NCBI GenBank assembly: GCA_902540805.1
Contig: CACBON010000002.1
Span: forward strand, 27,322-91,321
Length of the DNA: 64,000 nt
Reading direction: 5' to 3'
Source: an uncultured Alphaproteobacteria bacterium
Lineage (GTDB): Bacteria; Pseudomonadota; Alphaproteobacteria; Methylaequorales; Methylaequoraceae
Shown here: piece by piece, positions 4,433-33,682 of the stretch
How positions within the stretch are numbered: position 1 is the first letter of the stretch
How the letters are laid out: every line of letters begins with the position of its first letter
Position numbers and translations under genes: made by a program
Notes under the pieces: model-generated
Seen by the model: only the letters and a program-made list of their open reading frames with translations
Databases searched by the model: none
Told to the model about the DNA's origin: nothing

Positions 4433-4664
4433 CAGGCTTTTCCTTGTTCTGAATATTTGTTTTTGTGGATGTTTCTTCTTCAGATCCAGGCATATAAGCA
4501 GATCCTTGAATTGACTTTGCAACAAATTTGTTCATTAAAGGATCTGATTTCTTTACATAATCCTCGAGCTCTTCTTGCAAAATTTTTTCTGCCTCTTCCT
4601 TACTTTTAGCTTCAATTTCAGCTAGCCCATCAACAATCCAGTGAACTTTATAAATCATCTTCAT
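4416..4664 (-). CDS. hypothetical acidic 82-aa protein
   Basis: ORF in an operon-like array with flanking same-strand genes. I recognise no motif. Confidence 0.3.
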   Translation of the reverse strand: MKMIYKVHWIVDGLAEIEAKSKEEAEKILQEELEDYVKKSDPLMNKFVAKSIQGSAYMPGSEEETSTKTNIQNKEKPDEENS

Positions 4665-5304
4665 CCTTGTTAGAATTAAAATATTTATTTTTTGTTAGGA
4701 TTTCATTGGCTTGAACCTGGATTTCAGTTATTTTTTCCTTTTCAATTAACTCTCCAACTCTATCCCTAATTTTCATAGCTTTATATATTCCTGAACTTAC
4801 AGATACAGAATACCATAAATATGATTTTTCAAAATCAATTTCTGGAGAAATTTTTTCATACCAATAACCCAATTGAAAGGCTGATATTGGATTGTTATCG
4901 TTAACATACCCATTTTCAAGAATTTTAGGGATAGTTTTGGAAATTTTTAAAAATTCATCTTCTTCAATTTTTTCTTCAATTGATTTTATTTTATTTAAAC
5001 ATTTTTTATTTCCGTTTAGTGAACAAAGCCAAGTATACTTAAGTGACTTGCTAAAGTTTTGGGTAGTTCCGATACCCTCAAAATACATATTTGATAAATT
5101 AAAAATTGCATCTTTATTTCCTTTTTCGGAAAGATTAAAAAAAACAATAAAAGATTTTTTAAACTCTCCATTTTCATAAAAATTCACCCCACTTTTGTAG
5201 TATTCCACATCATTCAAATATTTATTTTCAGGTGTTATTGTGTCTGCGAAAGACAATTCTTTAACGAGAAAAAAGTTTAAAAGAATTAAAAGAAATTGTT
5301 TCAC
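4648..5304 (-). CDS. Sel1/TPR-like repeat protein with signal peptide
   Basis: Sel1-like repeats (AIFNLSNMYFEGIGTTQNFSKSLKYTW; AFQLGYWYEKISPEIDFEKSYLWY). N-terminal signal peptide. GTG start overlaps the stop of the upstream ORF (GGTGA). Confidence 0.5.
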   Translation of the reverse strand: MKQFLLILLNFFLVKELSFADTITPENKYLNDVEYYKSGVNFYENGEFKKSFIVFFNLSEKGNKDAIFNLSNMYFEGIGTTQNFSKSLKYTWLCSLNGNKKCLNKIKSIEEKIEEDEFLKISKTIPKILENGYVNDNNPISAFQLGYWYEKISPEIDFEKSYLWYSVSVSSGIYKAMKIRDRVGELIEKEKITEIQVQANEILTKNKYFNSNKDEDDL

Positions 5305-5684
5305 CTTCCCGCCATCATTATTAACTGTAAATATAAAACTCTTAATCTAAACTTGGAATTTGGTCTTTGTTCATAAACAACAATTCTTGGTCTATCAGAA
5401 TTAGGTTTTTGAAATTCTATTGACATATCTTCTGGAAGAAATACACCATTAAATTCCAAAGTTTTTTGAGGATCTTGTTCAAACTCTTCTTTAAATTTAG
5501 AATCAATCCAAATCCTTGCCAGAACCCTTCCAAGTATATCTGGAAGAAACTTTCTTACCTCTGATCTATTTTTGAAATGATGAAGTTTATTAGTTATGTC
5601 AAGTGTTTTCGTTTTGTCTTGATTAACAGTTATAACTTCGTTTTGTTTAGTTTTGACTGGTAAATTTTGTTGTTTTTTTTTCAT
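5301..5684 (-). CDS. NHLP / nitrile-hydratase-alpha N-terminal-like domain protein
   Basis: ARIWIDSKFKEEFEQDPQKTLEFNGVFLPEDMSIEF...RIVVYEQRP parallels the conserved AKAWxDPxFKxxLLxDPxxALxExGxxxPEGxxxxVVENTP block of NHase alpha and NHLP leaders. It ends ...MMAGR with no core peptide. Confidence 0.45.
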   Translation of the reverse strand: MKKKQQNLPVKTKQNEVITVNQDKTKTLDITNKLHHFKNRSEVRKFLPDILGRVLARIWIDSKFKEEFEQDPQKTLEFNGVFLPEDMSIEFQKPNSDRPRIVVYEQRPNSKFRLRVLYLQLIMMAGR

Positions 5685-5770: not shown

Positions 5771-6043
5771 ATGCATAGCACGAAGAACATTATTAAATTC
5801 CCAAATTTAATAAACCAAAAGAAAGAAAAAATGGTTAAAATTAGAGATGAAATTGAAAAAATTTTAACCAACTATGCCATTAATGAGAGAGATTTATGGG
5901 CTGTTTCACTTGCTGCTGGAAGATTTGCTTCAATCAATCTTGAAAAGTTGGATGGTGAAAAGCAGACAATTAATTTTTTTAAAAATTGTATTGAAACTCA
6001 AAAAAAGTTTGAACTAACCAGAAATCCTTCCAACATTCCCTGA
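5771..6043 (+). CDS. hypothetical small protein (possibly starting at the internal ATG at 5831)
   Basis: ORF only. The 3' end overlaps the convergent bactofilin gene by 30 nt. Confidence 0.2.
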   Translation: MHSTKNIIKFPNLINQKKEKMVKIRDEIEKILTNYAINERDLWAVSLAAGRFASINLEKLDGEKQTINFFKNCIETQKKFELTRNPSNIP

Positions 6044-6331
6044 AATTTGAGCTCCAGTATCAACGGAAAGCGAATTTGTTTTTAATTTACCGTCAATTAC
6101 ACCACTGTTAGAGACTTCTAGAAGGTCAGCTGTAATATCTCCATCAACCTTTCCCTCTACTTTTAAGTGTTCTGCATTTATGTTTCCATTGAAAAGTGCT
6201 GTGGATTCAATAATTACAGATCTAGCAACGATATTCCCTTTAAAATTTCCCGCTATAACAACTTGTCCTTCTTTCGACTCTAATTGTCCTTCCATGAGAA
6301 GACTTTTATTAATATAGGTTATATCACTCAT
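6014..6331 (-). CDS. bactofilin family protein (paralog 3)
   Basis: Beta-helical bactofilin (DUF583) periodicity: VIAGNFKGNIVARSVIIESTALFNGNINAEHLKVEGKVDGDITAD... Confidence 0.7.
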   Translation of the reverse strand: MSDITYINKSLLMEGQLESKEGQVVIAGNFKGNIVARSVIIESTALFNGNINAEHLKVEGKVDGDITADLLEVSNSGVIDGKLKTNSLSVDTGAQISGNVGRISG

Positions 6332-6333
6332 CT

Positions 6334-6687
6334 TTAATCCTCAGCGTGTTTATTATTTTTTAACTTATTTTCATCCCAGTTATGGATGATCTTACAGTTG
6401 AGTGCTGCACCTCTATCCATCTGAAGTGATTTATAATTAATTTCTCCAGTAATTACAGAAGAATCTGTAAGCCAAACAGAATCAGCTTTAATTTTACCTT
6501 GATAGTTTCCAGAAATTACAACTAACTCAGATATTATTGACCCTTCTAGTGAAGCATATCTTCCAAGTGTTACCTTATCAGATTTAATATCTGCTTCGAC
6601 TCTTCCATTAATTTCTATAGTTGATGCATTAGATATTTTGCCTTTAAATATCGCTCCTCTTCCTATGATTGATTGATTATCTGCCAT
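6334..6687 (-). CDS. bactofilin family protein (paralog 2)
   Basis: IGRGAIFKGKISNASTIEINGRVEADIKSDKVTLGRYASLEGSI... is a typical CcmA/BacA-like repeat pattern. Confidence 0.75.
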   Translation of the reverse strand: MADNQSIIGRGAIFKGKISNASTIEINGRVEADIKSDKVTLGRYASLEGSIISELVVISGNYQGKIKADSVWLTDSSVITGEINYKSLQMDRGAALNCKIIHNWDENKLKNNKHAED

Positions 6688-6689
6688 TA

Positions 6690-7112
6690 TTAAATACCTT
6701 TAGATTTTTTTGATGGTTTTTTTCTTTTTTCTTTCTCTAAACTTTTGTCTTCTATTCTTTTATCTAATCCACGGAAAAGCTGAATCTCTAAATTAGCACC
6801 TGGTCTTGCACTTAAACTATTGTAATACATATTACCTTTTATGTTAGCTGCAGATTCTATAGCTAATGATTCAGCAGTAACATCGCCCTCAAATTTACCT
6901 CCAATTATACATTCGAAAGCTTTTATATTACCTTTCTGATTTCCTTCAGCAGAAATATGAACATGTTCACATTCTATATTACCTTTAACAATTCCTTTAA
7001 GCACTAACTTTCCACTACATTTTATGTTACCGTTAATTTGCATTTCAGTACCAATTACACTAGAGGAAGTCGATGCTTTTTTTGGAGTTTTATCTGAGTT
7101 TCTAGAAAACAT
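6690..7112 (-). CDS. bactofilin family protein (paralog 1) with K-rich C-terminal tail
   Basis: MQINGNIKCSGKLVLKGIVKGNIECEHVHISAEGNQKGNIKAFECIIGGKFEGDVTAESLAIESAANIKGNMYY is the bactofilin repeat core. Confidence 0.75.
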   Translation of the reverse strand: MFSRNSDKTPKKASTSSSVIGTEMQINGNIKCSGKLVLKGIVKGNIECEHVHISAEGNQKGNIKAFECIIGGKFEGDVTAESLAIESAANIKGNMYYNSLSARPGANLEIQLFRGLDKRIEDKSLEKEKRKKPSKKSKGI

Positions 7113-7123
7113 ATTTCTATTTT

Positions 7124-7139
7124 TGCAATAATTTTGCCA
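7124..7139 (-). promoter_or_regulatory. sigma-54 (-24/-12) promoter candidate for the bactofilin operon
   Basis: Minus strand reads TGGCAA-AATTA-TTGCA. The -12 C is 12 nt upstream of ATG 7112, which implies a leaderless transcript. Confidence 0.55.
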
Positions 7140-7211
7140 ATTAATTTAATTTTTAGAACTTTTACCATTATCATAAAAAAAATTAAAAAAAAAGTTTTAT
7201 TATTTATATTT

Positions 7212-7227
7212 TGGCTTACTAAATGCA
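7212..7227 (+). promoter_or_regulatory. sigma-54 promoter candidate for the K-rich protein / M23 peptidase operon
   Basis: TGGCTT-ACTAA-ATGCA. GG and GC are correctly spaced. The -12 element is weaker (ATGCA). It lies about 42 nt upstream of ATG 7269. Confidence 0.4.
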
Positions 7228-7268
7228 TAAATTTACTTTTAATAAATTTTATTGTAAATTAATGAATT

Positions 7269-7811
7269 ATGAGTGAACCAGTAATTGATATTAGAGACAG
7301 GATAGAAAAGATGAGAAATCAGATGACCGTACCTGCCTCTAAAGTTTCTACTTCAGAAACAAAAGTTGAAAGTAAAAAAATTGAATCCGTACCAAGCGAC
7401 AAAGCCGCAAACATTAATGTAGAAAACTTAGAAAAAAAAATAAGTAAAAACAACTTTGAAATAGCCGATAAAGAAAATATTAAATTTAAGACAAACGAAA
7501 AATCAGCGGTCGATTCTGAAGCAAAAAAGCATAAACCAAAAAAAGCTGAAGAACCTGATTTTATTGAAAAAATAGAATTTGAAAAACAAAAGACTTTTGA
7601 AACTAAGCAAAATTATAAGACCTATGATAGCTATCAAAATGATAGAGTTGTTGATGATAAAAAACAATCAGTAAAGTTTGATGAAAAACAACCATTTCCT
7701 CAGTTTAGTTTAAACGTAAGTAATCCTATTTCTTGGAAACTAATGTTGCTAATTATGTTAATGCAACTGTTAACCAACATGATGTTGGTTGTTGTTTTAT
7801 ACCTAAAATAA
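7269..7811 (+). CDS. lysine-rich protein with C-terminal hydrophobic anchor
   Basis: Low-complexity K/E-rich sequence ending in the TM-like segment LMLLIMLMQLLTNMMLVVVLYL. It is 4 nt upstream of the M23 peptidase gene. Confidence 0.3.
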   Translation: MSEPVIDIRDRIEKMRNQMTVPASKVSTSETKVESKKIESVPSDKAANINVENLEKKISKNNFEIADKENIKFKTNEKSAVDSEAKKHKPKKAEEPDFIEKIEFEKQKTFETKQNYKTYDSYQNDRVVDDKKQSVKFDEKQPFPQFSLNVSNPISWKLMLLIMLMQLLTNMMLVVVLYLK

Positions 7812-7815
7812 CTAA

Positions 7816-9195
7816 ATGGAAAATTTATCTAAAAAATTTTCTATGAATGTGCTTAAATTTAACATTCTGAAAAATCTAAAATCAAGTACAAGATTTGGCG
7901 AAACTAGTATCTTTTCCAAAAACTTAACTGTATTTTCAAAAAACCTTAGACTCATTCTCAAAGAAAGAAGATTTCTTTATTTTACAAAAAAAGGCCCCAT
8001 AGAAGTTGTATTCAACATTAAACATTATCTGTCAGCTATTGCAATTTTTCTGGTTTTAATCTTCAAAGTATTTCAACTTTTATTCTTTGGTGTTTCGTCT
8101 TTTTTTTCTTATATGATTTACAAAAATACAGTTATAAATGAGCAGAGCTTTACAGAATCCGAAATTAAAACGTTAAAAAGTATTGCAAAAGGTAAAAATA
8201 TATCGGAGCAAGAAATTAATTCTGAAAAAGCAGAAATAGTAATAAAACAAAAAGATGAATTTAACAACACAAATAATTATCAAAATGAATTACAAGATCA
8301 ATTAAGAGAAAAATTATTAAATTTAAAAAGTATGATGCGAAATATAAAGCTTAGCCTCCCAAATGACTTGAATTATTCAGATGAAATTAAATTTGAGCAA
8401 TTTTCTAAAATTGCGAGTCCTGAAATGGTTGCAATAGAACACGCCTTCGAAAACAAGTTTGATTTAACAAAACCATCAAAAGACCAAAAGGAATCATTTT
8501 CATATAAGAAACTGCCTGTTATACCGTTTGTTGCACCAAGAACAAAAAAACTGAAAATAATTAATTTTACTAAGAAAATTGATATTGAAATTTTACAACT
8601 TTTAAGTGTTTTTGAACAATTAAAACTTCAACCAGATAAACTTGATATTCATAGGATAAACGCCTTGCTTTCTGAAAATATAAATGTAAGTGAAGATAAC
8701 GAGGATTTGTTGGATCATACTTCGCTAAGGTTTCAAATCTTGCAAGATCTTAAAGATGCAATTATTTATGTGCCTTTAAAACCACCTATGCAATATTACT
8801 ATGTCTCTAGTCCCTACGGTGTCAGAGTTCATCCTAAAAGCAAAAGAAAACAAATGCATCATGGAATTGATATGGCTGGTACTTGGCAAGAAGAGGTTAG
8901 GGCACCTGCTGATGGATATGTTTCTTTTTCAGGAAGAAATGGGTCTTTTGGTAAAACAATCAAAATAATACATAAACATGGTGTGTCAACATTGTATGGA
9001 CATCTTCATCGATTGAATGTGAAAAAAGGAAAGAATGTTACAGAGGGCGAAGTAATTGGAAAAATGGGATCAACAGGAAGAGCTGTAGGTGCGCATCTTC
9101 ATTATGAAATAAAAGTCAATGGTAAATCAGTAAATCCATATGATTTTATTTCAGTGGGACGTGATCTGCTAAGCAGTTCAATAATTAAAAAATAA
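7816..9195 (+). CDS. M23/LytM family metallo-endopeptidase (membrane anchored, coiled-coil middle)
   Basis: C-terminal HHGIDMAG...GRAVGAHLHYEI carries the HxxxD and HxH motifs of peptidase M23. One N-terminal TM helix. Confidence 0.75.
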   Translation: MENLSKKFSMNVLKFNILKNLKSSTRFGETSIFSKNLTVFSKNLRLILKERRFLYFTKKGPIEVVFNIKHYLSAIAIFLVLIFKVFQLLFFGVSSFFSYMIYKNTVINEQSFTESEIKTLKSIAKGKNISEQEINSEKAEIVIKQKDEFNNTNNYQNELQDQLREKLLNLKSMMRNIKLSLPNDLNYSDEIKFEQFSKIASPEMVAIEHAFENKFDLTKPSKDQKESFSYKKLPVIPFVAPRTKKLKIINFTKKIDIEILQLLSVFEQLKLQPDKLDIHRINALLSENINVSEDNEDLLDHTSLRFQILQDLKDAIIYVPLKPPMQYYYVSSPYGVRVHPKSKRKQMHHGIDMAGTWQEEVRAPADGYVSFSGRNGSFGKTIKIIHKHGVSTLYGHLHRLNVKKGKNVTEGEVIGKMGSTGRAVGAHLHYEIKVNGKSVNPYDFISVGRDLLSSSIIKK

Positions 9196-9204
9196 AGTAA
9201 AGTT

Positions 9205-9220
9205 TGGCACTTAAATTGCT
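9205..9220 (+). promoter_or_regulatory. sigma-54 promoter (consensus-perfect) for the SLT-domain gene
   Basis: TGGCAC-TTAAA-TTGCT. The -12 C is 12-13 nt before ATG 9232, which implies a leaderless transcript. Confidence 0.6.
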
Positions 9221-9231
9221 GAATAAAATGC

Positions 9232-9834
9232 ATGAGATTATTTTTGGCCGTTTTATTATGCTTTTTAATATTTACATTTCTTGAATCAAAAGAATTAGAT
9301 AATTGTAACTATTTAACTGAAAAGTACGGAAAAATTTATAATCTTCCCAATAAATTATTAACTTCTATCGCACTTGTAGAATCTGGGATCAAAAAGAACG
9401 AATTTAAATCATGGCCATGGACACTAAATGTTTCTGGAAAATCAATGTATTTTGATAATAAATTAGAAACCTTAGAATATTTAAAAAGTAATATAAGATT
9501 AAAAAAAAGTATCGACGTCGGTTGCATGCAAATTAATACAAGATACCACTTGAAAAATTTTAAAGATTTGTCTCATTTAGTCGAGCCCGAAGAAAATGTT
9601 AAGTATGCTGCAATTTATCTTCGTAAACTTTATAATAAACATAAATCGTGGAACGAAGCGGTTTCAAGATATCATTCATCAATTCCAAAACGAAAGAAAA
9701 ATTATCTTAAAAAAGTTCATACATATTGGAATGATTTAAGACAACAGAAAATAGTTATTAATAATTATACCAGCCATGATGAAGCAGAAAAAATAAAATT
9801 TTTTAGAGAAATACTAAATAAAGAAAATATTTAA
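9232..9834 (+). CDS. lytic transglycosylase (SLT domain) with signal peptide
   Basis: SIALVESGIKKNE (catalytic ES), VGCMQIN and AAIYLRKLY motifs of family-1 SLT domains. N-terminal signal peptide. Confidence 0.65.
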   Translation: MRLFLAVLLCFLIFTFLESKELDNCNYLTEKYGKIYNLPNKLLTSIALVESGIKKNEFKSWPWTLNVSGKSMYFDNKLETLEYLKSNIRLKKSIDVGCMQINTRYHLKNFKDLSHLVEPEENVKYAAIYLRKLYNKHKSWNEAVSRYHSSIPKRKKNYLKKVHTYWNDLRQQKIVINNYTSHDEAEKIKFFREILNKENI

Positions 9835-9839
9835 GATTT

Positions 9840-9855
9840 TGGCAAAGTATTTGCA
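9840..9855 (+). promoter_or_regulatory. sigma-54 promoter candidate for a small ORF
   Basis: TGGCAA-AGTAT-TTGCA. The -12 C is 12 nt upstream of ATG 9866. Confidence 0.55.
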
Positions 9856-9865
9856 GACATATTGT

Positions 9866-10051
9866 ATGAAAGGAAAAATAATGAATAAATACATAAGATC
9901 ACGAGAAATTAAAGATAATATTATTAATTCTAATCCAGTTATTAAAATTACTCATTTTGACAATAATAAATGTGTTAAAACTGATGTTTACCCAATTTCA
10001 CATTTCTTGGATAAAACTTCTAGAGAAATAAAAGCTCTAGTATATTCCTAA
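9866..10051 (+). CDS. small basic protein (61 aa, or 56 aa from ATG 9881 which has an AAAGGA RBS)
   Basis: ORF directly downstream of a sigma-54 motif. The track ORF starts at TTG 9839, inside the promoter motif. No recognisable domain. Confidence 0.3.
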   Translation: MKGKIMNKYIRSREIKDNIINSNPVIKITHFDNNKCVKTDVYPISHFLDKTSREIKALVYS

Positions 10052-10148: not shown

Positions 10149-11609
10149 CTACATATTCATACTTTGAATTTTCATAATTTTTCTTCTAACTGAGGAGGCT
10201 GGTATATTGAGTAACTCCCTGTATTTTGCTACTGTTCTTCTAGCTAAATCAATTCCTTCATCTTGGAGTTTTTCTACTAACATTTCGTCACTCAATGGAC
10301 TGTGTACTGGTTCACTACTAATTAATTTTTTTAGAGATTCTCTTACTGATTCTGCTGAATGAGTTTCACCTTTCTTAGTACTACTTATAGAGGCACTAAA
10401 AAATAGTTTCATTTCAAAAACACCTCTTGGTGTTAGCATCAATTTATCTGATGTAACTCTACTGACTGTGCTTTCATGCATATTTATTTTTTTTGCTACA
10501 TCCTTAAGAACCATTGGTTTAAGATACTTTTTTCCCTTTTCAAAAAATTCCTTTTGTTGGTTAACAATTTCTGAGCTTATTTTCAGTGTTGTTACATTTC
10601 TTTGTTGAATTGCTTTGAGTAACCATCTTGCAGAATTTAAAGATTCATTAATAAACTTTTTATCTGATTCTCCACACTGAAGTCTCTCTATTTCTTTCAC
10701 GTAATCTTCGTTAATATTAATTTTTGGAAGTGTGCTATGATTTAATTCCACAGCCCAGTCAGAATTATTTTTTGTTACAATTACATCTGGATGAAAAATA
10801 TTGTCATTATCTATAGAATACTTACTCCCAGGTTTTGGGTTTAGAGCTCTTATAAGCCTTATTTCTTCTTTCAGTTTTTCCTCTGTTAATCCTGTAAGTT
10901 TTTGGAGACCTTTAATATTTCCACTTCCAAGTAGTTCAATATTATCAATAAGAATCTCTTTTTTTGAATCACAGTTGTTTTCGTTTATAAGTTGAATTTT
11001 TAGGCACTCTTTCAAATTTCTAGCAAATACACCATTAGGCTCAAAAGATTGCATTCTTTCTAGAACTTTTTCAATTTTATTTAATTTAAATCCACTAAAC
11101 TCTTCGATAGTTTCCAATTTTTCTGTAATCCAACCATTTTCATCAATGTAATCAATTAATATTTTTGCAATATTCTTATCTTCATCATCCTCAAATTCAA
11201 GATCTGCTTGATTATTCAAAATGGATTTTAAAGAAACTTTGTTGCTAAGTGTTTGTTCAATTACACTTCCAACGTCAACACTTTCCGTTGATGAATGCCT
11301 ACTGTTAAATTCAAAAGTCGCATCGCAATCCCACCTATTTTCAAAATCATTATTATGGGGTTCATCTGCAATAGATTCGCCATTTTTGAAAGATTCGTCT
11401 AATTCATCAGTTTTTTCTATGTCTTGATTTTCTTTATTATCTAGTTCTTCGCTCTCATTTTCCAAAAATGGATTCTCTTCCATCTCTTTATTCACTAAAT
11501 TTGTTAATTCTAAATTATTTAGCTGAAGCAATTTAATTGCTTGTTGTAACTGAGGAGTCATAACTAAAGATTGACTCTGTTTTAATTTAAGATTCTGTGA
11601 AATTTGCAT
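10149..11609 (-). CDS. rpoN: RNA polymerase sigma-54 factor
   Basis: Region I is Q/L-rich (MTPQLQQAIKLLQLNNLEL). C-terminal RpoN box ARRTVAKYRE. Confidence 0.85.
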   Translation of the reverse strand: MQISQNLKLKQSQSLVMTPQLQQAIKLLQLNNLELTNLVNKEMEENPFLENESEELDNKENQDIEKTDELDESFKNGESIADEPHNNDFENRWDCDATFEFNSRHSSTESVDVGSVIEQTLSNKVSLKSILNNQADLEFEDDEDKNIAKILIDYIDENGWITEKLETIEEFSGFKLNKIEKVLERMQSFEPNGVFARNLKECLKIQLINENNCDSKKEILIDNIELLGSGNIKGLQKLTGLTEEKLKEEIRLIRALNPKPGSKYSIDNDNIFHPDVIVTKNNSDWAVELNHSTLPKININEDYVKEIERLQCGESDKKFINESLNSARWLLKAIQQRNVTTLKISSEIVNQQKEFFEKGKKYLKPMVLKDVAKKINMHESTVSRVTSDKLMLTPRGVFEMKLFFSASISSTKKGETHSAESVRESLKKLISSEPVHSPLSDEMLVEKLQDEGIDLARRTVAKYRELLNIPASSVRRKIMKIQSMNM

Positions 11610-12377: not shown

Positions 12378-12574
12378 AAAATTGTAGAATATGTTCTTTC
12401 ATAAGATATTTTTTAGGTTTTGTTCTGTTATTGATTATTATTTCGCTGACTTTTAAAGACAATCTAGGTTATCTTTCGTTTGTAACACCATGGAATGCAG
12501 CAATATTAATATTTGGTGTGGGTTGTTGTCTATTTTTATTTAAATTAATTGAGTATTTAAATCAGAAAGATTAA
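12374..12574 (+). CDS. small two-TM membrane protein
   Basis: ORF with two hydrophobic helices. Overlaps the upstream stop by 4 nt. Confidence 0.25.
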   Translation: MKNCRICSFIRYFLGFVLLLIIISLTFKDNLGYLSFVTPWNAAILIFGVGCCLFLFKLIEYLNQKD

Positions 12575-13047
12575 CGATCTTTTACAAATCTTACAAATAA
12601 TTCTTTCTCAGGTACAAACCTTCCATAAGAATGCCCCGTAAAGAAGTTTACTGACCAAAAAAACTTAGGTGACCACCAATTTCTTTGAGAAGTCCAGAAA
12701 GGTTCAGCCGGTGTATTAGGAAAAAAAGTTTTATTTATCTTTGCTCCCTCGCATTTTTTACAAATTAAACTTTCAAGCTCTTTTCTAGAGGGCAATCTCC
12801 ATTCACCTTCAATTTGTTCATTAAGTAAATTATTAGCCTCTTCTGCAGATTTTAAATCCAATTTAACTGCAGTTCCAAGACATTCTTGTTTGTTGTCGCT
12901 CCATTGTTGACCTGTTGTACATTTTAACCATTCAAGTTTATTTTTTAAATCTATAACGTAATATCCTTTGTCTATGAAGTTAGATGCAAAGACATTATTA
13001 CTAAAAAATAATAGGAAAAAACATATAAAAAGTTGCTTTTTAATCAT
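12571..13047 (-). CDS. DUF1566 (Lcl C-terminal domain) secreted protein
   Basis: Signal peptide. WLKCTTGQQWSD...WRLPSRKELESL matches the DUF1566 pattern. Confidence 0.5.
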   Translation of the reverse strand: MIKKQLFICFFLLFFSNNVFASNFIDKGYYVIDLKNKLEWLKCTTGQQWSDNKQECLGTAVKLDLKSAEEANNLLNEQIEGEWRLPSRKELESLICKKCEGAKINKTFFPNTPAEPFWTSQRNWWSPKFFWSVNFFTGHSYGRFVPEKELFVRFVKDR

Positions 13048-13096: not shown

Positions 13097-13112
13097 TGGT
13101 ATTAAAGTTGCA
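13097..13112 (+). promoter_or_regulatory. sigma-54 promoter candidate for motAB, inside a 28-bp palindrome
   Basis: TGGTAT-TAAAG-TTGCA. It sits in the inverted repeat tggtat...atacca (13097-13124), 51 nt upstream of ATG 13163. Confidence 0.45.
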
Positions 13113-13162: not shown

Positions 13163-13936
13163 ATGGATTTAGCTACAATAATTGGTTTTCTTGGTACAAT
13201 TGGCATGATTGCTGGCGCAATGATTTCAGCTGGAGGCTTGGGGTCATACATTGATGTCCCTTCAATTTTAATAGTTTTTGGTGGTTCTTTTTTTGCTGTA
13301 ATGTATACGGCACCCTTACCAGTTTATCTTGGTTCTTTCGGAGCTTTTGGTAAAGCTTTTAAACCACCTGTAAAAAAAATGGACGAACTTATTGAAAGAA
13401 TAGTAGAGCTAGCAGGTATTGCAAGAAAAGATGGAATGATGGCATTAGAAGGGCAAGAAACCCCAGATCCATTTTTTGACAACGGTCTTCAAATGCTAGT
13501 AGACGGAGCAGATGAATCAAAACTTACCGTACAATTAAAAAAAGAACTAAAGGCAATGCAAGGTCGACATGAAAAAAATATTGGGTGTGCCCAATCTTGG
13601 GTAGATATAGCACCTGCAATGGGAATGATTGGAACTTTGGTTGGATTGGTTGCGATGCTTGGTAATATGGCAGATCCTAAAGCAATAGGTCCTGCAATGG
13701 CCGTTGCTCTTTTGACTACACTTTACGGGGCTATGATAGCAAATACTATTTTTATGCCGATAGTAATAAAATTAAAAGGCTACTCAGCCTACGAAACAAC
13801 CTACAGAGAAATGATCATTACAGGTTTACAATTTATTTCCAGAGGAGAGAGTCCAAGAAATATTCAGGATCAACTTGTTGCGAATCTTCCACCTAAAGAA
13901 AAGCAAAAACTCCTGGAAGCTGCAGCTGGAGGTTAA
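13163..13936 (+). CDS. motA: flagellar stator protein MotA/PomA
   Basis: MotA/TolQ/ExbB family with 4 TM helices (GTLVGLVAMLGNMADPKAIGPAMAVALLTTLYG). Immediately upstream of motB. Confidence 0.75.
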   Translation: MDLATIIGFLGTIGMIAGAMISAGGLGSYIDVPSILIVFGGSFFAVMYTAPLPVYLGSFGAFGKAFKPPVKKMDELIERIVELAGIARKDGMMALEGQETPDPFFDNGLQMLVDGADESKLTVQLKKELKAMQGRHEKNIGCAQSWVDIAPAMGMIGTLVGLVAMLGNMADPKAIGPAMAVALLTTLYGAMIANTIFMPIVIKLKGYSAYETTYREMIITGLQFISRGESPRNIQDQLVANLPPKEKQKLLEAAAGG

Positions 13937-13946
13937 TGTTTGAATC

Positions 13947-15131
13947 ATGGCTGAGGAAAAAACCGAAAATCAACAGACATCTAATGAAGAAGAGGAGCAT
14001 GAATGTCCTGAATGCCCTCCAAAAGGAGCACCTGCTTGGATGGCAACTTTTGCCGACATGGCAACACTGTTGATGGCTTTTTTTGTTTTAATCCTATCTT
14101 TCGCAGAATTTAACGTCCCAAAATTTAAACAAATAAGTGGAAGTATGAAGAATGCTTTTGGAATACAAAGAGTTATTCCAGTTGTTGAACCACCTAAAGG
14201 AACAACAATATTATCTTTAAACTTCAGTCCGAACCCGACTCCAGCAGTTCAAGAAAATTTAAAACAACAAACAACAGAGACTGATCAACCTAAAGTAGAA
14301 CTTCAAACTAAGAACGAAGATAATACTAAGGATGATGGTGAAACTGAGGACGCGAAAGAACTTGCCAAAAATATTCAGGAAGCTATTGCAAGAGGTGATA
14401 TAACCGTCGAAGCATTAGGGAGTAAAGTTGTTGTTAACTTTACACCAACAGAAGCTGACGAGAAAGAACTACCGCAACTACTTCAAGAGACTTTAAATGC
14501 TGTGGAATCTGTAAAGGCTGCATCAGGAAAATCAGATTCTGAAATTTTAATTGGTGGCTTAGAAAAACAACTCGCTGATCTTGCAACAGCATCTTCTCAA
14601 AAAGGTAAAAATGAGGCTGAAGGAGAAGATGGAGAAAGTGTAGGTCAATCTGAACAAAGCCAATCAGCTAAAGAGGAGGCTAAAAAAGCAGAGTTGGCTG
14701 AGGACAAATTAAAAATTGCACTTAAACAAGAAATTGGGGAAGGTCTTGTAAATGTTGATAGAGAGGACGACAAAGTGATAATAACTGTTGGGTCTGCTGG
14801 TGCGTTCAAGTCAGGATCTGCTGAACTTACCAACAAGGCAAGACAGATAATGTCTAAAATAGCAGAACAAAATAAAAAAGGTAGAAGTGAGATATTAGTT
14901 ATGGGTCATACGGACAATGTGCCACTTACATTTGGGTCAAATTATAGAGACAATTGGGATCTCGCAGCAGCAAGATCTGCCTCAGTGGTACAACAATTAT
15001 CAAGAAATGATACTCTCGACCCAAAAAGAATGAAGGCGATTAGTTACGGAGAGACAAGACCAGTAGAGTCAAATGATACCTCTCAGGGAAGAGCCAAAAA
15101 TAGAAGAATCGAAATTGAGATAAATTATTAA
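13947..15131 (+). CDS. motB: flagellar stator protein MotB with long acidic linker
   Basis: N-terminal TM helix with the conserved Asp region (ATFADMATLLMAFFVLIL). C-terminal OmpA-like peptidoglycan-binding domain (MGHTDNVPL...NRRIEIEI). Confidence 0.75.
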   Translation: MAEEKTENQQTSNEEEEHECPECPPKGAPAWMATFADMATLLMAFFVLILSFAEFNVPKFKQISGSMKNAFGIQRVIPVVEPPKGTTILSLNFSPNPTPAVQENLKQQTTETDQPKVELQTKNEDNTKDDGETEDAKELAKNIQEAIARGDITVEALGSKVVVNFTPTEADEKELPQLLQETLNAVESVKAASGKSDSEILIGGLEKQLADLATASSQKGKNEAEGEDGESVGQSEQSQSAKEEAKKAELAEDKLKIALKQEIGEGLVNVDREDDKVIITVGSAGAFKSGSAELTNKARQIMSKIAEQNKKGRSEILVMGHTDNVPLTFGSNYRDNWDLAAARSASVVQQLSRNDTLDPKRMKAISYGETRPVESNDTSQGRAKNRRIEIEINY

Positions 15132-16056: not shown

Positions 16057-16656
16057 TCACTCGTATTCAAGTTCTTCGTTTTTATATTTTTCAAAATATT
16101 CGTTACCAAGAATTTCTTTTATCTTCTCAATTGTAAGATCGTTAACTTTAGACGAGTATAACTCGTGCATTTCAGAACATTTTCTAGAAACTGCGTTTGC
16201 AACCCCTTGAGATATAAAATCATTTTCAAGTGCTGTTCTTGCTCTTGTGGTTGCCTCTGATTTAGCCTTTGTAAGCCTAGCTAAACCTGAATTTTTTTTT
16301 CTATTTAAATCGTCGACAACTTCCATCAGTTGTTTATAGCCTGGTTCTGGTAGGTCAATGTTAATGAATTGCCCATCAACTTCGTAATTAAACTCTACTT
16401 CGTCAATTTTTTCAGTTAAAAGGGGAATATGATCTGTATTAAATACTAAGATTTGCACTACATTTTCATTTTCTGTTTTTTTTATATCTCCTACATCAAC
16501 TAATCTTCTTGGCTTACCCTGAATGTTGATCCGGATACCTTTTAGTGTACTTAAGTTTGCATCTGCTGATTTTATTTCTTGAATTACTTCTGTATAATCT
16601 TCAATTGCTGCTTTCATTAAAGTTTCTGCTTGTATTGTATATTTATCTGCAACCAT
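16057..16656 (-). CDS. ribosome-recycling-factor-like protein (divergent paralog)
   Basis: By eye the hydrophobic/charge pattern tracks RRF: LKGIRINIQGKPRRLVDV vs LDGIVVEYYGTPTPLRQLA; ILVFNTDHIPLLTEKI vs INVFDRSMSPAVEKAI; INIDLPEP vs IRVPLPPLTEE. Roughly 20% identity at most. Confidence 0.35.
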   Translation of the reverse strand: MVADKYTIQAETLMKAAIEDYTEVIQEIKSADANLSTLKGIRINIQGKPRRLVDVGDIKKTENENVVQILVFNTDHIPLLTEKIDEVEFNYEVDGQFINIDLPEPGYKQLMEVVDDLNRKKNSGLARLTKAKSEATTRARTALENDFISQGVANAVSRKCSEMHELYSSKVNDLTIEKIKEILGNEYFEKYKNEELEYE

Positions 16657-18199: not shown

Positions 18200-18396
18200 G
18201 CAATTCTTCCTTTATTTAGTATTTTAACACTTTTTTGTTTTTTTTGAAATAGTGCACAATCTGTGCCAGAAACTTTCTTTATTTCTAAATATGGGTTATT
18301 TTTTGAAATTATACCAAATGCTTTACAACCATATGGAAAGTTTTTCTTATAGGTCACATAAAAATGCGAGCAGTTATTACAGTTATTTTGATTCAT
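18196..18396 (-). CDS. small Cys4 (putative zinc-ribbon) protein
   Basis: CNNC ... C(24) ... C(47) spacing. Overlaps its neighbours by 4 nt on each side. Confidence 0.3.
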   Translation of the reverse strand: MNQNNCNNCSHFYVTYKKNFPYGCKAFGIISKNNPYLEIKKVSGTDCALFQKKQKSVKILNKGRIA

Positions 18397-21961: not shown

Positions 21962-21977
21962 TGCAAAAACCTTGCCG
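21962..21977 (-). promoter_or_regulatory. sigma-54 promoter candidate for fliO-P-Q-R-flhB and the downstream unknown genes
   Basis: Minus strand reads CGGCAA-GGTTT-TTGCA. The -12 C is 12 nt upstream of about 21951. The RBS-equipped ATG is at 21928. Confidence 0.5.
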
Positions 21978-22055: not shown

Positions 22056-22457
22056 CTATAAGTTTTCGATTAGTTCCTCTGGGGTAGCAACTTCAGTAAA
22101 CCTTATACCAAATTTTTCACCAACCATAACAACTTCGCCTTTGGCAATTTTTGTCCCATTTGCTAAAATATCTAAGGCGTCTCCAGCTAATCTGTCAAGC
22201 TCAACAACAGATCCTTCATTTAATCGTAGCAAATCTTTGATTTTAATTTCAGTATTTCCAACTTCAACAGTAAGTTTTACTTCGATGTTTTCCAAAAGTC
22301 TTAAATTACTTACTGCTGTGGTATTTTTATCTGAAGTCTTTGAGGATTCTGCTTCAGATTTATTAGCTTGATTTTCAGCTGAGGCTTCAGGTGCCTTAGT
22401 TTCTTCTTGAGTTTGTTCGGTCTGATTTTTATCTTTTTCTGCTATTTCTGCATTCAT
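22056..22457 (-). CDS. fliN: flagellar motor switch protein FliN
   Basis: C-terminal SpoA domain (VKLTVEVGNTEIKIKDLLRLNEGSVVELD). Confidence 0.8.
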   Translation of the reverse strand: MNAEIAEKDKNQTEQTQEETKAPEASAENQANKSEAESSKTSDKNTTAVSNLRLLENIEVKLTVEVGNTEIKIKDLLRLNEGSVVELDRLAGDALDILANGTKIAKGEVVMVGEKFGIRFTEVATPEELIENL

Positions 22458-25452: not shown

Positions 25453-25468
25453 CTGCAATTATAATGCC
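25453..25468 (-). promoter_or_regulatory. sigma-54 promoter (consensus-like) for fliK-L-M-N
   Basis: Minus strand reads TGGCAT-TATAA-TTGCA in the 43-nt fliJ-fliK gap. The RBS AAGGGG and ATG 25429 follow. Confidence 0.6.
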
Positions 25469-25472
25469 ACTA

Positions 25473-31268: not shown

Positions 31269-32426
31269 TTAAGCTTGCATCAATTTTTTTTCTGACAAAT
31301 TTTCTTGAATGTTATTATAAAAATTACTTTCTTTCGAAACATCTATCATTATGTCTTTATCTTCAATTATATTTCTTTCAGAGAGAACTATAGCTCTTTG
31401 CAGAACATTTTCCAACTCTCTAACATTTCCGGGCCAACTATACTCTCTTAATATTTTTTGAGCATCTTTGTTGATGTAAGGTAGGGCGCTTTTTTCTGTG
31501 TGTCTATTCAATAAAGCTATACTAATTGGCAAAATATCATCAGGTCTTTCAGATAAATTATGTGTTTCTATTGGGAACACATTAAGTCTGTAATATAAAT
31601 CCTCTCTGAATTTTTTATCTTTTACTTCGTTTAACATATCTCTATTAGTTGTTGCAATTACTCGAACATTAACATCAATATCTCGTTGTCCGCCAATCGG
31701 TGTAACTTTTTTTTCTTGGAGAACTCTAAGAAGCTTAGCTTGAAGGGACAAAGGCATTTCAGATACTTCATCAAGAAGTAATGTTCCATTATCAGCAGCT
31801 CGAAAAATTCCTTTATTCGCAGAGGAAGCTCCTGTAAAAGCTCCTTTTTCATGTCCAAATAACATTGCTTCAAGCATATTTTCTGGTATCGCAGCACAAT
31901 TTATTGCAATAAAAGGTTTTTCATGTCTATCCGACTTTTTATGAATAAGATTGGAAATAACTTCTTTTCCAGTTCCAGTCGGTCCATGAATAAACACTGT
32001 AACATCTGTTTTTGAAACCTTTTCAACCATATTAATTAAAGAAAGTGTTTTCTTATCTGAGAAACTATACTTTTCCTTAGATATAATCTGAAAAATAATT
32101 TCTTTTATAACCTCATCCATAATCTGGAAAGAAATTTGAATATAAGCTCCGCCCATTTCTTTTTTTAAGTCATAACTACTATCATTTTCTGAATCCAAAA
32201 CTATTAATTTTGTAGAACCTATATTTCTAGCAATTTTAAGAATGTTTGATTGACCACCTTGTTGGTTTTCGAATTTTTTATCGATAATCAATGTGGATTG
32301 AGAACTTTTAATTTCACTGATCTCATCAGAATCAATTAATTTGATTTCCTTTCCTTTTTTACTAAAAAAATCATTTATATCATTGTGTACTTCAAAACAA
32401 TCTTTAATAATAAATATTTCCTTCAT
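31269..32426 (-). CDS. sigma-54-dependent activator lacking a DNA-binding domain (FlgR/FleT-like); start set to ATG 32426
   Basis: Degenerate receiver-like N-terminus. AAA+ core with GPTGTGKE and GAFTGA. About 40 aa follow GNVREL and contain no Fis-type HTH. The track ORF starts at TTG 32453. Confidence 0.8.
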   Translation of the reverse strand: MKEIFIIKDCFEVHNDINDFFSKKGKEIKLIDSDEISEIKSSQSTLIIDKKFENQQGGQSNILKIARNIGSTKLIVLDSENDSSYDLKKEMGGAYIQISFQIMDEVIKEIIFQIISKEKYSFSDKKTLSLINMVEKVSKTDVTVFIHGPTGTGKEVISNLIHKKSDRHEKPFIAINCAAIPENMLEAMLFGHEKGAFTGASSANKGIFRAADNGTLLLDEVSEMPLSLQAKLLRVLQEKKVTPIGGQRDIDVNVRVIATTNRDMLNEVKDKKFREDLYYRLNVFPIETHNLSERPDDILPISIALLNRHTEKSALPYINKDAQKILREYSWPGNVRELENVLQRAIVLSERNIIEDKDIMIDVSKESNFYNNIQENLSEKKLMQA

Positions 32427-32459
32427 ACTTAAATCCTTTATTTTCGTTTTCAATCTAAA

Positions 32460-32475
32460 AGCAAAAATATTGCCA
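32460..32475 (-). promoter_or_regulatory. sigma-54 promoter candidate driving the EBP-fliE-F-G-H-I-J operon
   Basis: Minus strand reads TGGCAA-TATTT-TTGCT. The -12 C is about 12 nt upstream of 32449. RBS AAAGGA precedes ATG 32426. Confidence 0.55.
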
Positions 32476-32617
32476 AATAAGAAAACGAATTTTTACAAAA
32501 TTAATTTTAAATAGTAATATCAACTACTTAGAAATTTTTTTTTTTTTTAATTTTTTTTAAAATTTGCTTATTGTCAGTTTTCTGACATTATTTTATTTAT
32601 AAATAAGTTAATTTATT

Positions 32618-33682
32618 ATGTCTGAGATCATCAAAGGAAAATGTGAGGCAACTTTACAATTAAAAAAACTTGTAGAGATGGTTGCAAAATCAAATTCAAC
32701 AGTTTTACTTAGAGGTGAGACTGGGTGTGGTAAAGATGTGGTTGCCAGAGCTATTCATGAATCATCAAAAAGAAACGGTGAATTAATTAATGTTAATTGT
32801 GCAGCAATACCGTCTGAGCTTTTAGAATCTGAATTATTTGGTCACGAAAAAGGAGCATTTACTGGTGCAGATTCAAAAAGAGAAGGAAGATTCGAGGCTT
32901 CCAATAATGGCACCTTGTTTCTAGATGAAATAGGTGACATGCCTATGGCACTTCAGGCTAAATTACTCAGAGCGATTGAAACTAGAAAAATTCAACGAGT
33001 TGGAGGAAGAAAAGAGATTGATCTTAATTTAAGGCTTATTTGTGCTACTCACCAAGACATTGAAAAAAAAATTGATGAGGGTAATTTTAGGGCTGATCTA
33101 TTTTTTCGGATCAACGTATTTCCAATTGAAATTCCATCACTCGCAGAGAGAAAGGAGGATATTCCAATTCTTGTTAATCATATCTTAGAGGATTTAAAAT
33201 ACAGTGGATCTATTATTCCTCAAATTGATAATTCGGGAATAAAAGCGCTTCAAGAATATTTATGGCCAGGTAATGTAAGAGAATTAAAAAATGTTATTGA
33301 GAGGGCAGCAATAATCTTCCCAGAAAAAAGTATTAATGGCAAAAACATTAAAGAAAATTTGTTAAAAGTTAATTTACCTGACAACTCTCAAGAAAAAGAG
33401 GAGTTATGGGAAATGACTTCTGATCTTTCTCCAATAAAAATCGAAACGAGTTCTGATTCTCATTCAATGCCACACCCAAATCATTATAAAAAATGGTTTG
33501 ATTTCTTAGACAAGATAGATCTTCGTAGACATTTAAGTGATGTTGAATTTAACTTAATAGAAGGAGCACTAAAGAAAAGTAACGGATCTGTGACCGAGGC
33601 TTCGAAATGTTTAAAAATAAACAGAACGACTTTAATTGAAAAAATGAAAAAATACTCTATTCCTAAGCTCGGAAATGACTAA
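32618..33682 (+). CDS. sigma-54-dependent activator with C-terminal Fis-type HTH and no regulatory N-domain
   Basis: Starts directly with the AAA+ domain ([20 protein letters not shown]). C-terminal HTH ([29 protein letters not shown]). Confidence 0.8.

Follow-up and report, generated by a model that had tools for sequence, protein, structure and literature searches.

An SltF-family lytic transglycosylase gene with its own sigma-54 promoter in the flagellar island of an uncultured marine alphaproteobacterium

The DNA analysed here, called the window in the following, is a stretch of 64 kb from contig CACBON010000002.1 (assembly GCA_902540805.1, positions 27,322 to 91,321), which belongs to an uncultured marine alphaproteobacterium with a G+C content of about 29%. 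From about 5 to 34 kb the window carries a flagellar island, in which a gene for a small protein with an SLT (lytic transglycosylase) domain is located. On its 5' side lie a gene for an M23 peptidase, the gene g7269 and three divergently oriented bactofilin genes; on its 3' side follow a small open reading frame (ORF) and, 300 nt downstream and on the other strand, rpoN encoding sigma-54, behind which stator genes and fli and flh genes are found (Table 1). An earlier note, based on the letters of the sequence, had described an SLT gene beside a LytM-type (M23) peptidase gene within a flagellar island, and this arrangement was confirmed. It had further proposed that the two enzymes together open the peptidoglycan for the flagellar rod. 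Our analysis supports this idea for the SLT enzyme, which is probably an SltF-type protein serving rod penetration, and points to the bactofilins as the likely partners of the M23 peptidase.

The SLT gene, its product and its promoter

The SLT gene encodes a protein of 200 aa (ORF calling in the 64-kb window), residues 30-161 of which match the Pfam domain SLT (PF01464) with an E-value of 4.2e-10 and 39.7 bits, the cut-off being 21.3. The catalytic pair E50-S51 is located in the sequence LVESG, and the motif VGCMQIN corresponds to residues 96-102. In an alignment of 39 homologues E50-S51, VGCMQIN, WPWTLN, YHSS and the two cysteines C25 and C98 were all invariant. The N-terminus consists of MR, LFLAVLLCFLIFTFL and ES|K, that is, 15 hydrophobic residues followed by LES|K, and at the predicted cleavage site the homologues have A or S at position -1 and L, I, V or S at position -3, which is AXA-like. 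Judged by eye, this fits a Sec-type signal peptide comprising approximately the first 19 residues; in the AlphaFold2 model the N-terminus forms a helix (residues 2-18) followed by a linker of low confidence. Thus, the SLT domain with its ES motif and VGCMQIN is present as described in the earlier note, and by inspection the N-terminus resembles a signal peptide. Of the start at 9205 given there, what holds is that this is the first base of the promoter motif, while the coding sequence begins at 9232.

The AlphaFold2 model of the SLT protein (pLDDT 77) is helical and lysozyme-like in its fold, and the WPWTLN-GKS segment contributes a sheet of three strands. When it was compared to the PDB with Foldseek, only family-1 transglycosylases were found. 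The top match was EtgA (8urn; weak E-value of 0.057, probability 1.0, TM-scores 0.42/0.54), a type III secretion-specific enzyme crystallised as a fusion with the inner-rod protein EscI, followed by MltC, DslA, MltF and MltE. By sequence, neither the single protein nor the family profile matched any PDB entry at E ≤ 1. The modelled structure therefore supports the fold and enzyme class of family-1 transglycosylases and no finer assignment. The sole NCBIfam match, IagB (E 1.8e-4), also belongs to the type III secretion transglycosylases and is below threshold. Like the window protein, EtgA, IagB and IpgF are small secreted family-1 transglycosylases, and theirs is a dedicated role in an envelope-spanning machine, the type III secretion system; EtgA is controlled by a rod protein. 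However, the window protein scores far below the thresholds of these families, and unlike them it has the additional WPWTLN beta-segment and the two invariant cysteines, which are specific to the alphaproteobacterial family.

Upstream of the SLT gene, the sequence TGGCACTTAAATTGC is the only exact match to TGGCAC-N5-TTGC within the 64 kb. With up to one mismatch, 8 such sites were found in the window against 1.17 expected, a number that none of 100 shuffled sequences reached. At 26-27 nt 5' of the SLT start codon, the motif TGGCAY-N5-TTGC is present in all eleven loci of the window's own clade (L001-L011), and most SAR116 loci have it at the same distance, even those without any flagellar gene within 10 kb. 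A strong sigma-70 promoter or a terminator was also considered for the region between the M23 gene and the SLT gene; sigma-70-like sites occurred there at background level only, and no terminator was detected. This shows that the SLT gene has a conserved sigma-54 promoter, which is of the type also found at flagellar operons of the island, and the earlier description of a consensus-perfect promoter is correct.

The position of this promoter relative to the start codon is of note. The C of its -12 GC element lies 13 nt before the ATG in the window and 12-13 nt before it in the relatives, and no Shine-Dalgarno sequence is present. This spacing is kept across the own clade and in SAR116 (for example at L012:9975-10003), and it is also found at the first bactofilin gene, bacA, where the GC element is located 13 nt 5' of the ATG, again without a Shine-Dalgarno sequence. 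At neighbouring sigma-54 units (the small ORF, fliK, fliO/P and the gene of the FleT-like activator), the distance between element and ATG is 26-35 nt and clear AGGA/GGAG boxes are present. According to the standard -24/-12 numbering, transcripts of the SLT gene and of bacA should start at the start codon or 1 nt before it. Therefore, we predict leaderless, sigma-54-dependent mRNAs for both.

Table 1. Features of the window and their coordinates.
Feature	Position	Strand	Basis or remark
Genes for 218-aa and 127-aa proteins, 5' of the bactofilin genes	4648-5684	-	Weak Sel1 repeat in the 218-aa protein
Three tandem bactofilin genes (140, 117 and 105 aa)	6014-7112	-	Pfam Bactofilin, E 4e-21 to 3e-22; divergent from g7269-M23
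Sigma-54-type promoter of the bactofilin operon, TGGCAAAATTATTGC	7125-7139	-	GC element 13 nt before the ATG at 7112
Variant sigma-54-like element before g7269-M23, putative, TGGCTTACTAAATGC	7212-7226	+	GG-N10-GC spacing
g7269, leading gene of the g7269-M23 unit; conserved 180-aa protein, hydrophobic near its C-terminus	7269-7811	+	ORF; upstream of M23 in L001-L011
LmdC-like bitopic M23 DD-endopeptidase, 459 aa	7816-9195	+	Pfam M23, conservation, AlphaFold2
Sigma-54 (-24/-12) promoter of the SLT gene, TGGCACTTAAATTGC	9205-9219	+	Exact TGGCAC-N5-TTGC; conserved in relatives
SltF-family lytic transglycosylase, 200 aa	9232-9834	+	Pfam SLT, alignments, profile-profile comparison, AlphaFold2
Predicted signal peptide, approx. 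residues 1-19	9232-9288	+	Inspection by eye
Catalytic pair E50-S51	9379-9384	+	Alignment
GCMQIN, residues 97-102	9520-9537	+	Alignment
C-terminal tail K187-IKFFREIL-195 (K-[IV]-x-x-F-R-x-x-L), candidate FlgJ-contact region	9790-9816	+	Motif conservation
Sigma-54-type promoter of the small ORF, TGGCAAAGTATTTGC	9840-9854	+	Conserved in all own-clade loci
56-aa ORF with Shine-Dalgarno sequence, between SLT and rpoN	9881-10051	+	Motif PVI-x-ITHFD...YP-x-SHFL in L001-L011; no Pfam match
rpoN (sigma-54)	10149-11609	-	Pfam Sigma54_AID, CBD, DBD; convergent with the SLT and small-ORF units
Secreted Lcl_C-domain protein	12571-13047	-	PF07603
Sigma-54-type promoter of pomA, TGGTAT variant	13097-13111	+	
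PomA/MotB-like stator genes	13163-15131		
Ribosome recycling factor-like gene	16057-16656	-	Pfam RRF, E 3e-12
Sigma-54-type promoter of the g17474-g16666-RRF-like operon	18254-18268	-	
flhB, fliR, fliP, fliN, fliM, fliL, fliK, fliI, fliH, fliG, fliF, fliE	18.6 to 31.3 kb		
Sigma-54-type promoter of fliO/P	21963-21977	-	
Sigma-54-type site inside fliN	22130-22144		
Sigma-54-type promoter of fliK	25455-25469	-	
Two sigma-54 activators	31269-33682		Pfam
FleT-like activator, no helix-turn-helix domain	31269-32453	-	Pfam; directly upstream of fliE-F-G-H-I
Sigma-54-type promoter of the FleT-like activator/fliE operon	32461-32475	-	
FleQ-like activator, helix-turn-helix domain HTH_8, no receiver domain	32618-33682	+	Pfam; divergent

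Relatives of the SLT protein and the link to SltF

Marine metagenomes and single-cell genomes yielded 324 close relatives of the SLT protein, and an exhaustive profile search with the family returned 5547 representatives at E ≤ 0.001. In species-representative genomes, the best 80 of 597 matches all came from Alphaproteobacteria (among them SAR116, Rhodospirillales, Rhodobacterales, Acetobacteraceae, Parvibaculum, Rickettsia and Tisiphia) except for one bin labelled Patescibacteria. Within the own clade the SLT proteins are 48-94% identical and the whole block is syntenic, with the order phosphoenolpyruvate carboxylase, ion channel, three small genes, three bactofilins, g7269, M23, SLT, small ORF, rpoN, Lcl_C gene and pomAB, leading to flhB. 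A neighbour-joining tree of 83 family members (148-column core, no bootstrap) contained the own clade, the Rickettsiales, Rhodospirillales-type groups, and SAR116 together with Rhodobacterales. It largely tracks taxonomy, as one orthologous family would do, and is taken as indicative only.

The gene context of the distant loci was analysed with the Flg, FlhA and FliC proteins of E. coli as queries. In Rhodobacterales (Nereida, Meridianimarinicoccus, Roseovarius, two Paracoccus and two metagenome-assembled genomes) the SLT homologues are located directly 3' of flgE-F-G-H-I-(short flgJ)-flgK-flgL, and the FlgJ proteins of the Rhodobacterales comparison loci have 100-124 aa and consist of the Rod-binding domain only. 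Rhodobacter sp. NSM has flgE, flgF, flgG, flgH, flgI, a FlgJ of 100 aa with the Rod-binding domain only, a FlgK of 1363 aa, flgL and then an SLT protein of 266 aa (P0349); 3' of the latter follow genes for a FleQ-like activator, fliD, fliC and rpoN, and the cluster continues to flhB, fliR and fliQ. This is a Fla1-type cluster. The window protein and P0349 share 38% identity over 143 aa (BLASTP, E 6e-37), and the catalytic Glu of the former is aligned with the VES motif of the latter (E57, which we take to be the number of the catalytic residue in SltF as well).

The place of these relatives behind flgL is the one reported for SltF, the flagellum-dedicated peptidoglycan cutter of Rhodobacter sphaeroides, whose gene belongs to the flgG operon and encodes a signal peptide and an SLT domain (PMC7277832). 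No protein labelled Cereibacter sphaeroides was among the top 120 of a search with the Rhodobacterales profile, which returned Rhodobacter sp. NSM, Paracoccus, Fuscovulum and others, and the positional orthologues from other Rhodobacterales stand in for the SltF sequence of R. sphaeroides. When the own clade was aligned to the Rhodobacterales set using hhalign, the probability was 100% with an E-value of 9.8e-53 over 154 columns, covering the whole mature domain. SltF and the window protein both carry the catalytic Glu of their SLT domain within a VES motif, and the N-terminal signal that precedes this domain in SltF has a putative Sec-type counterpart in the window protein. The SltF-position proteins and the window protein have WPWTLN, (I/V)DVGCMQ(I/L)N and YHS in common, and their tails are of a similar x-V/I-x-x-F-R type. 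The likeness to SltF suggested in the earlier note is borne out at the level of homology to SltF-position proteins and of shared context, and the lack of flagellar linkage elsewhere, which would have spoken against it, is not what we found, since the Rhodobacterales relatives follow flgL. By its sequence the window protein is another member of the SltF family, a type of enzyme that was already known.

The C-terminus is of particular interest. In the family, the catalytic domain is followed by a variable linker, of which the 200-aa window protein has almost nothing, and by a short conserved tail of the form K-[IV]-x-x-F-R-x-x-[LF]. In a regular-expression search of approximately the last 15 residues, the tail motif was detected in 11 of 11 own-clade proteins and in 13 of 14 SAR116-like proteins, the fourteenth (L065) having the near-variant IVLKFR. 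The corresponding sequences in flgL-adjacent proteins of Rhodobacterales are AVESFR (L015 and P0349), KIQRFR (L020) and KVQAFR (L017), and Rhodospirillales-type proteins have a QLxxWR or KLxEYR variant. The motif is absent from the two Paracoccus proteins and unrecognisable in Rickettsiales, where three of nine proteins gave unconvincing matches (NIRKYK). Since SltF of R. sphaeroides binds FlgJ via its C-terminus (PMC7277832), the tail is the obvious candidate for a FlgJ contact, and by analogy a FlgJ-binding role of K-[IV]-x-x-F-R can be proposed.

The promoter is also widespread in the family. Sites of the sigma-54 type (GG and GC intact, at most two mismatches, within 300 nt before the catalytic region) were found at 48 of 73 distant loci (L012-L084) but at 6 of 73 on the opposite strand, which served as control, and the background was 0.07 per 300 nt. 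They are kept even where the SLT homologue is embedded among metabolic genes; at many Rhodospirillales-type loci the motif is located about 47-53 nt 5' of the gene. By the same count, no site was detected at any Rickettsia or Tisiphia locus, nor at the loci from Acetobacteraceae and Parvibaculum. In summary, the SLT family is spread across Alphaproteobacteria, and its genes have mostly retained a sigma-54 promoter of their own, including those that are not part of a flagellar cluster.

The regulatory genes of the island point in the same direction. In R. sphaeroides, fleT-fliEFGHIJ is activated by FleQ together with sigma-54, and the basal-body class of genes by FleQ/FleT (PMC7277832). The FleT-like and FleQ-like pair of the window, together with rpoN, matches this Fla1 regulatory layout (PMC7277832), and SltF, as the window gene by its promoter sequence, is sigma-54-dependent and part of a FleQ/FleT/RpoN-type flagellar system. 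Co-expression of the SLT gene with the flagellar genes is thus indicated at the sequence level by its promoter, by the promoter type shared with them, and by the presence of rpoN and the activators in the island. Because of the homology to flgL-adjacent proteins, the conserved sigma-54 promoter, the shared tail and the Fla1-like island, we assign the SLT gene to the SltF family and regard rod penetration as its probable and most likely role.

According to this reading, RpoN and what we infer to be the flagellar activators of the promoter, the FleQ/FleT-like proteins of the island, would fire the conserved -24/-12 promoter. The resulting mRNA would start at the ATG or 1 nt before it and would be translated without a Shine-Dalgarno sequence. 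The protein would be exported by the Sec system and cleaved after about residue 19. Its domain, which is of the goose-lysozyme type with Glu50 as the presumed catalytic residue, should cleave MurNAc-GlcNAc (N-acetylmuramic acid-N-acetylglucosamine) bonds, as is typical for the family. In analogy to SltF, the K-I-x-x-F-R tail may dock the enzyme to a presumably single-domain FlgJ rod cap, and the hole would then be cut only where a rod grows.

Several observations weigh against a role in rod penetration. The SLT gene of the window is not beside rod genes or flgJ but adjoins a bactofilin-M23 morphogenetic module; with E. coli and Rhodobacter queries, neither rod and hook genes of the flg group nor flgJ, flhA or fliC were detected in the 64 kb. 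The single-domain FlgJ was seen in the Rhodobacterales comparison loci, and flgJ of the own lineage lies outside the window. The connection to R. sphaeroides SltF runs through positional orthologues in other Rhodobacterales. In many Alphaproteobacteria sigma-54 has other regulons, and sigma-54 control alone is no proof of flagellar control. In most lineages the neighbours are metabolic genes, such as FGase and GNAT at Rhodospirillales-type loci and enoyl-CoA hydratase, nitroreductase and MFS genes in SAR116. Furthermore, Rickettsia australis and Tisiphia, which are not known to be flagellated, possess members of the family as well. These have neither a sigma-54 site nor a recognisable tail; the family can therefore serve other purposes.

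The metabolic neighbourhoods at most loci, the presence in Rickettsia and Tisiphia, not known to be flagellated, and a tree that follows taxonomy, as expected for a vertically inherited core gene, would also agree with a general housekeeping transglycosylase of an alphaproteobacterial family, whose promoter and place in the island reflect genome compaction. We consider this improbable. A dedicated sigma-54 promoter is kept across orders and is absent exactly in the Rickettsiales members, the gene is embedded in flgG-type operons of Rhodobacterales, and the synteny with rpoN and pomAB holds down to 48% identity.

Although we favour an SltF-type enzyme, the window protein differs from this type in some respects. 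It has 200 aa, compared to about 266 aa in P0349, and it has lost nearly all of the variable linker that separates catalytic domain and tail. Unlike sltF, its gene is located outside the flgG operon as a transcription unit of its own between the M23 gene and rpoN, and its mRNA is predicted to be leaderless. Flagellum assembly also depends on stand-alone transglycosylases in Caulobacter crescentus (PleA) and Borrelia burgdorferi (LTase BB0259), where FlgJ consists of the scaffold domain only (PMC13584718, PMC8517470, PMC8781033). They can be likened to the window protein by function alone, and PleA serves pilus assembly as well.

The assignment is of interest because the way in which the rod crosses the cell wall when FlgJ lacks a hydrolase domain is understood for a few species only, namely through SltF of Rhodobacter, PleA of Caulobacter and BB0259 of Borrelia. 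A candidate wall cutter is now assigned in an abundant, uncultured and genome-streamlined marine lineage of Alphaproteobacteria, and the tendency of the family to keep an own sigma-54 promoter offers a simple criterion at the sequence level by which the enzyme can be located in further genomes. As far as can be concluded from sequence, three points go beyond the known picture: the sigma-54 promoter is a family-wide feature, transcripts are predicted to be leaderless and, as described in the following, a bactofilin-LmdC-like module in a flagellar island is apparently under the control of sigma-54.

The M23 peptidase and the bactofilins

The M23 protein matches PF01551 over the full length of the domain (1-96 of 96) with an E-value of 1.4e-30, and its zinc ligands HxxxD (H348, D352) and HxH (H427, H429) are invariant in 22 homologues. 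Identical proteins are encoded in the single-cell assemblies GCA_902558875.1 and GCA_902591405.1. The best NCBIfam matches, all below cut-off, were Pgp6 and Pgp3, which are shape peptidases of Campylobacter and Helicobacter, followed by ShyC and MepM. The protein appears to be composed of a cytoplasmic tail with an invariant beta-hairpin (E50-Y71), a transmembrane helix (approximately residues 71-103), a helical periplasmic region and the C-terminal M23 domain (346-441). Its most conserved stretch outside the catalytic domain, ERRFLYFTKxGPIExVFNxKHY, is located right before the hydrophobic helix. The AlphaFold2 model, which is of low confidence (pLDDT 55), contains strands at 51-57 and 60-66 and a helix at 68-109, after which come more helices and, at 316-439, a domain rich in beta structure. 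The gene is preceded by g7269, the product of which has no Pfam match, even at E ≤ 1.

This architecture resembles that of LmdC, a bitopic M23 endopeptidase with a conserved cytoplasmic beta-hairpin that binds bactofilin; lmdC adjoins bactofilin genes in many species, and bactofilin and M23 peptidase form an established morphogenetic module (PMC10945521). In the window, bactofilin genes are likewise the neighbours, and the arrangement of bactofilins and g7269-M23 is conserved in L001-L011. As compared by description, the BacA-LmdC system of Hyphomonas neptunium and Rhodospirillum rubrum has the same M23 architecture, an intact catalytic domain and a bactofilin neighbour. Unlike that system, the window has three bactofilin paralogues instead of one or two, and they are divergent from the M23 gene and not in a bacA-lmdC operon; in addition it has the conserved 180-aa gene before the M23 gene, sigma-54-type promoters and a location in a flagellar island.

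Regarding these promoters, the putative element TGGCTTACTAAATGC before g7269-M23 is nearly identical across the own-clade loci and is preceded by a conserved A-tract. The bactofilin promoter is kept in L001, L005, L006, L007 and L009, occurs as an ATGC variant in L010 and was undetected in L004, L008 and L011; in the SAR116 locus L071, TGGCATAATCGTTGC is found before bacA. Expression of the module thus seems to depend on the sigma factor that also serves the flagellar island. The M23 protein is best read as a bactofilin partner of the LmdC type and not as half of a split FlgJ, and this hydrolase, recruited by the three bactofilins in a device separate from the SLT enzyme, most likely shapes the cell or the pole. 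The peptidase is accordingly re-annotated as a shape enzyme of the LmdC type with a link to bactofilins. If the shape module indeed shares the flagellar sigma factor, the control of cell shape would be linked to the expression of motility genes. The presence of a cell-shape module inside a flagellar island, with which it apparently shares the sigma factor, is an observation in its own right; a literature search returned nothing relevant on bactofilin, flagella and sigma-54 together.

The earlier note had regarded the M23 and SLT enzymes as candidates for a split FlgJ-like pair. In the full form of this model they jointly make up for the hydrolase domain that FlgJ lacks, cross-links at the rod site being cut by the endopeptidase and glycan strands by the transglycosylase. 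This was a reasonable idea, because one class of FlgJ carries a C-terminal peptidase domain in place of the glucosaminidase, according to Nambu 2006 as cited in PMC13584718. As in that class, an M23-type endopeptidase is associated with flagellar genes in the window; the two genes are adjacent, each is preceded by a sigma-54-type element, and the adjacency is conserved in the own clade. However, the fusion that defines this class is absent. Pfam detected PF01551 only and no rod-binding domain (PF10135) in the 459 aa, which ruled out the M23 protein as a FlgJ-type peptidase, and unlike peptidase-FlgJ it is predicted to be anchored in the inner membrane with a cytoplasmic N-terminus. Its conserved hairpin is of the kind that binds bactofilin in LmdC (PMC10945521), and its gene is divergent to the bactofilin genes and has a putative promoter separate from that of the SLT gene. 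Moreover, the M23-SLT adjacency is confined to the own clade. Beyond it, an M23-like gene was found within 10 kb of an SLT homologue in three loci only (L047, L071 and L081), never adjacent and in L071 beside bactofilins, and the SltF-position loci of Rhodobacterales have no M23 gene. For these reasons the proposal of a joint hole machinery could not be upheld, and we give it little credence.

Conversely, the SLT enzyme could belong to the bactofilins, which would position the M23 peptidase while the transglycosylase helps to remodel the wall, resulting in curvature or pole shape, with sigma-54 switching on the whole module together with motility. Four sigma-54-type promoters within 3 kb (those of bacABC, g7269-M23, SLT and the small ORF), the absence of rod genes nearby and the established bactofilin-M23 unit (PMC10945521) are in line with this. 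So is the SAR116 locus L071, in which the order is M23(-) / bacABC(+) / SLT(+): the M23 gene is still divergent to bacABC and the SLT gene is located 3' of the bactofilins, and the linkage has thus been retained despite rearrangement. Nevertheless, we think it unlikely, since at least 60 other SLT loci have neither a bactofilin nor an M23 neighbour, a lytic transglycosylase is not mentioned in the text of the LmdC paper (PMC10945521), and the evidence from homology and from the common tail favours SltF.

A still broader view can be formulated for the 4 kb from 6014 to 10051, which comprise the three bactofilins, the tail-anchored 180-aa protein, the LmdC-like endopeptidase, the SltF-like transglycosylase and the conserved 56-aa protein. 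This block might be one sigma-54-controlled unit for wall remodelling at the flagellar pole, in which the bactofilins place both hydrolases at the site of the flagellum or couple curvature to motility. The SltF family would then be part of the sigma-54 flagellar regulon across Alphaproteobacteria, even outside the flagellar cluster, and its transcripts would be leaderless in these marine lineages. As a whole, we regard this as a speculation that is rather doubtful.

Other genes of the flagellar island

Sigma-54-type promoters were found upstream of further genes of the island (Table 1), and nearly every transcription unit appears to be sigma-54-dependent. The additional site inside fliN may be an internal promoter or a chance match. 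A regulatory layout of the Fla1 type in a lineage of low G+C content from the sea, with similar-looking SAR116 loci, also bears on the proposed gammaproteobacterial origin of Fla1.

Among ten neighbours (g4145, g4648, g5301, g5771, g7269, g11751, g15133, g16666, g17474 and the RRF-like gene) searched against Pfam at E ≤ 1, no useful match other than the weak Sel1 repeat and the RRF domain was obtained. The 56-aa protein encoded between the SLT gene and rpoN is possibly a small flagellar regulator or chaperone. The RRF-like gene, which is located between the stator genes and flhB and conserved in all own-clade loci, encodes a divergent paralogue of the ribosome recycling factor (32 bits for NCBIfam frr, the cut-off of which is 149). 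In the own clade and in SAR116/Puniceispirillales loci (L019, L056 and L071), the gene for the Lcl_C-domain protein has a conserved place between rpoN and pomAB, and its product may be a periplasmic component associated with the stator or the basal body. Finally, homologues of the two genes 5' of the bactofilins are located in SAR116 (L065:8169-9205), with a FlgG-like gene on one side and the SLT homologue on the other; flhA and fliA are found in the same region. The 218-aa and 127-aa proteins are therefore candidates for uncharacterised flagellar components.

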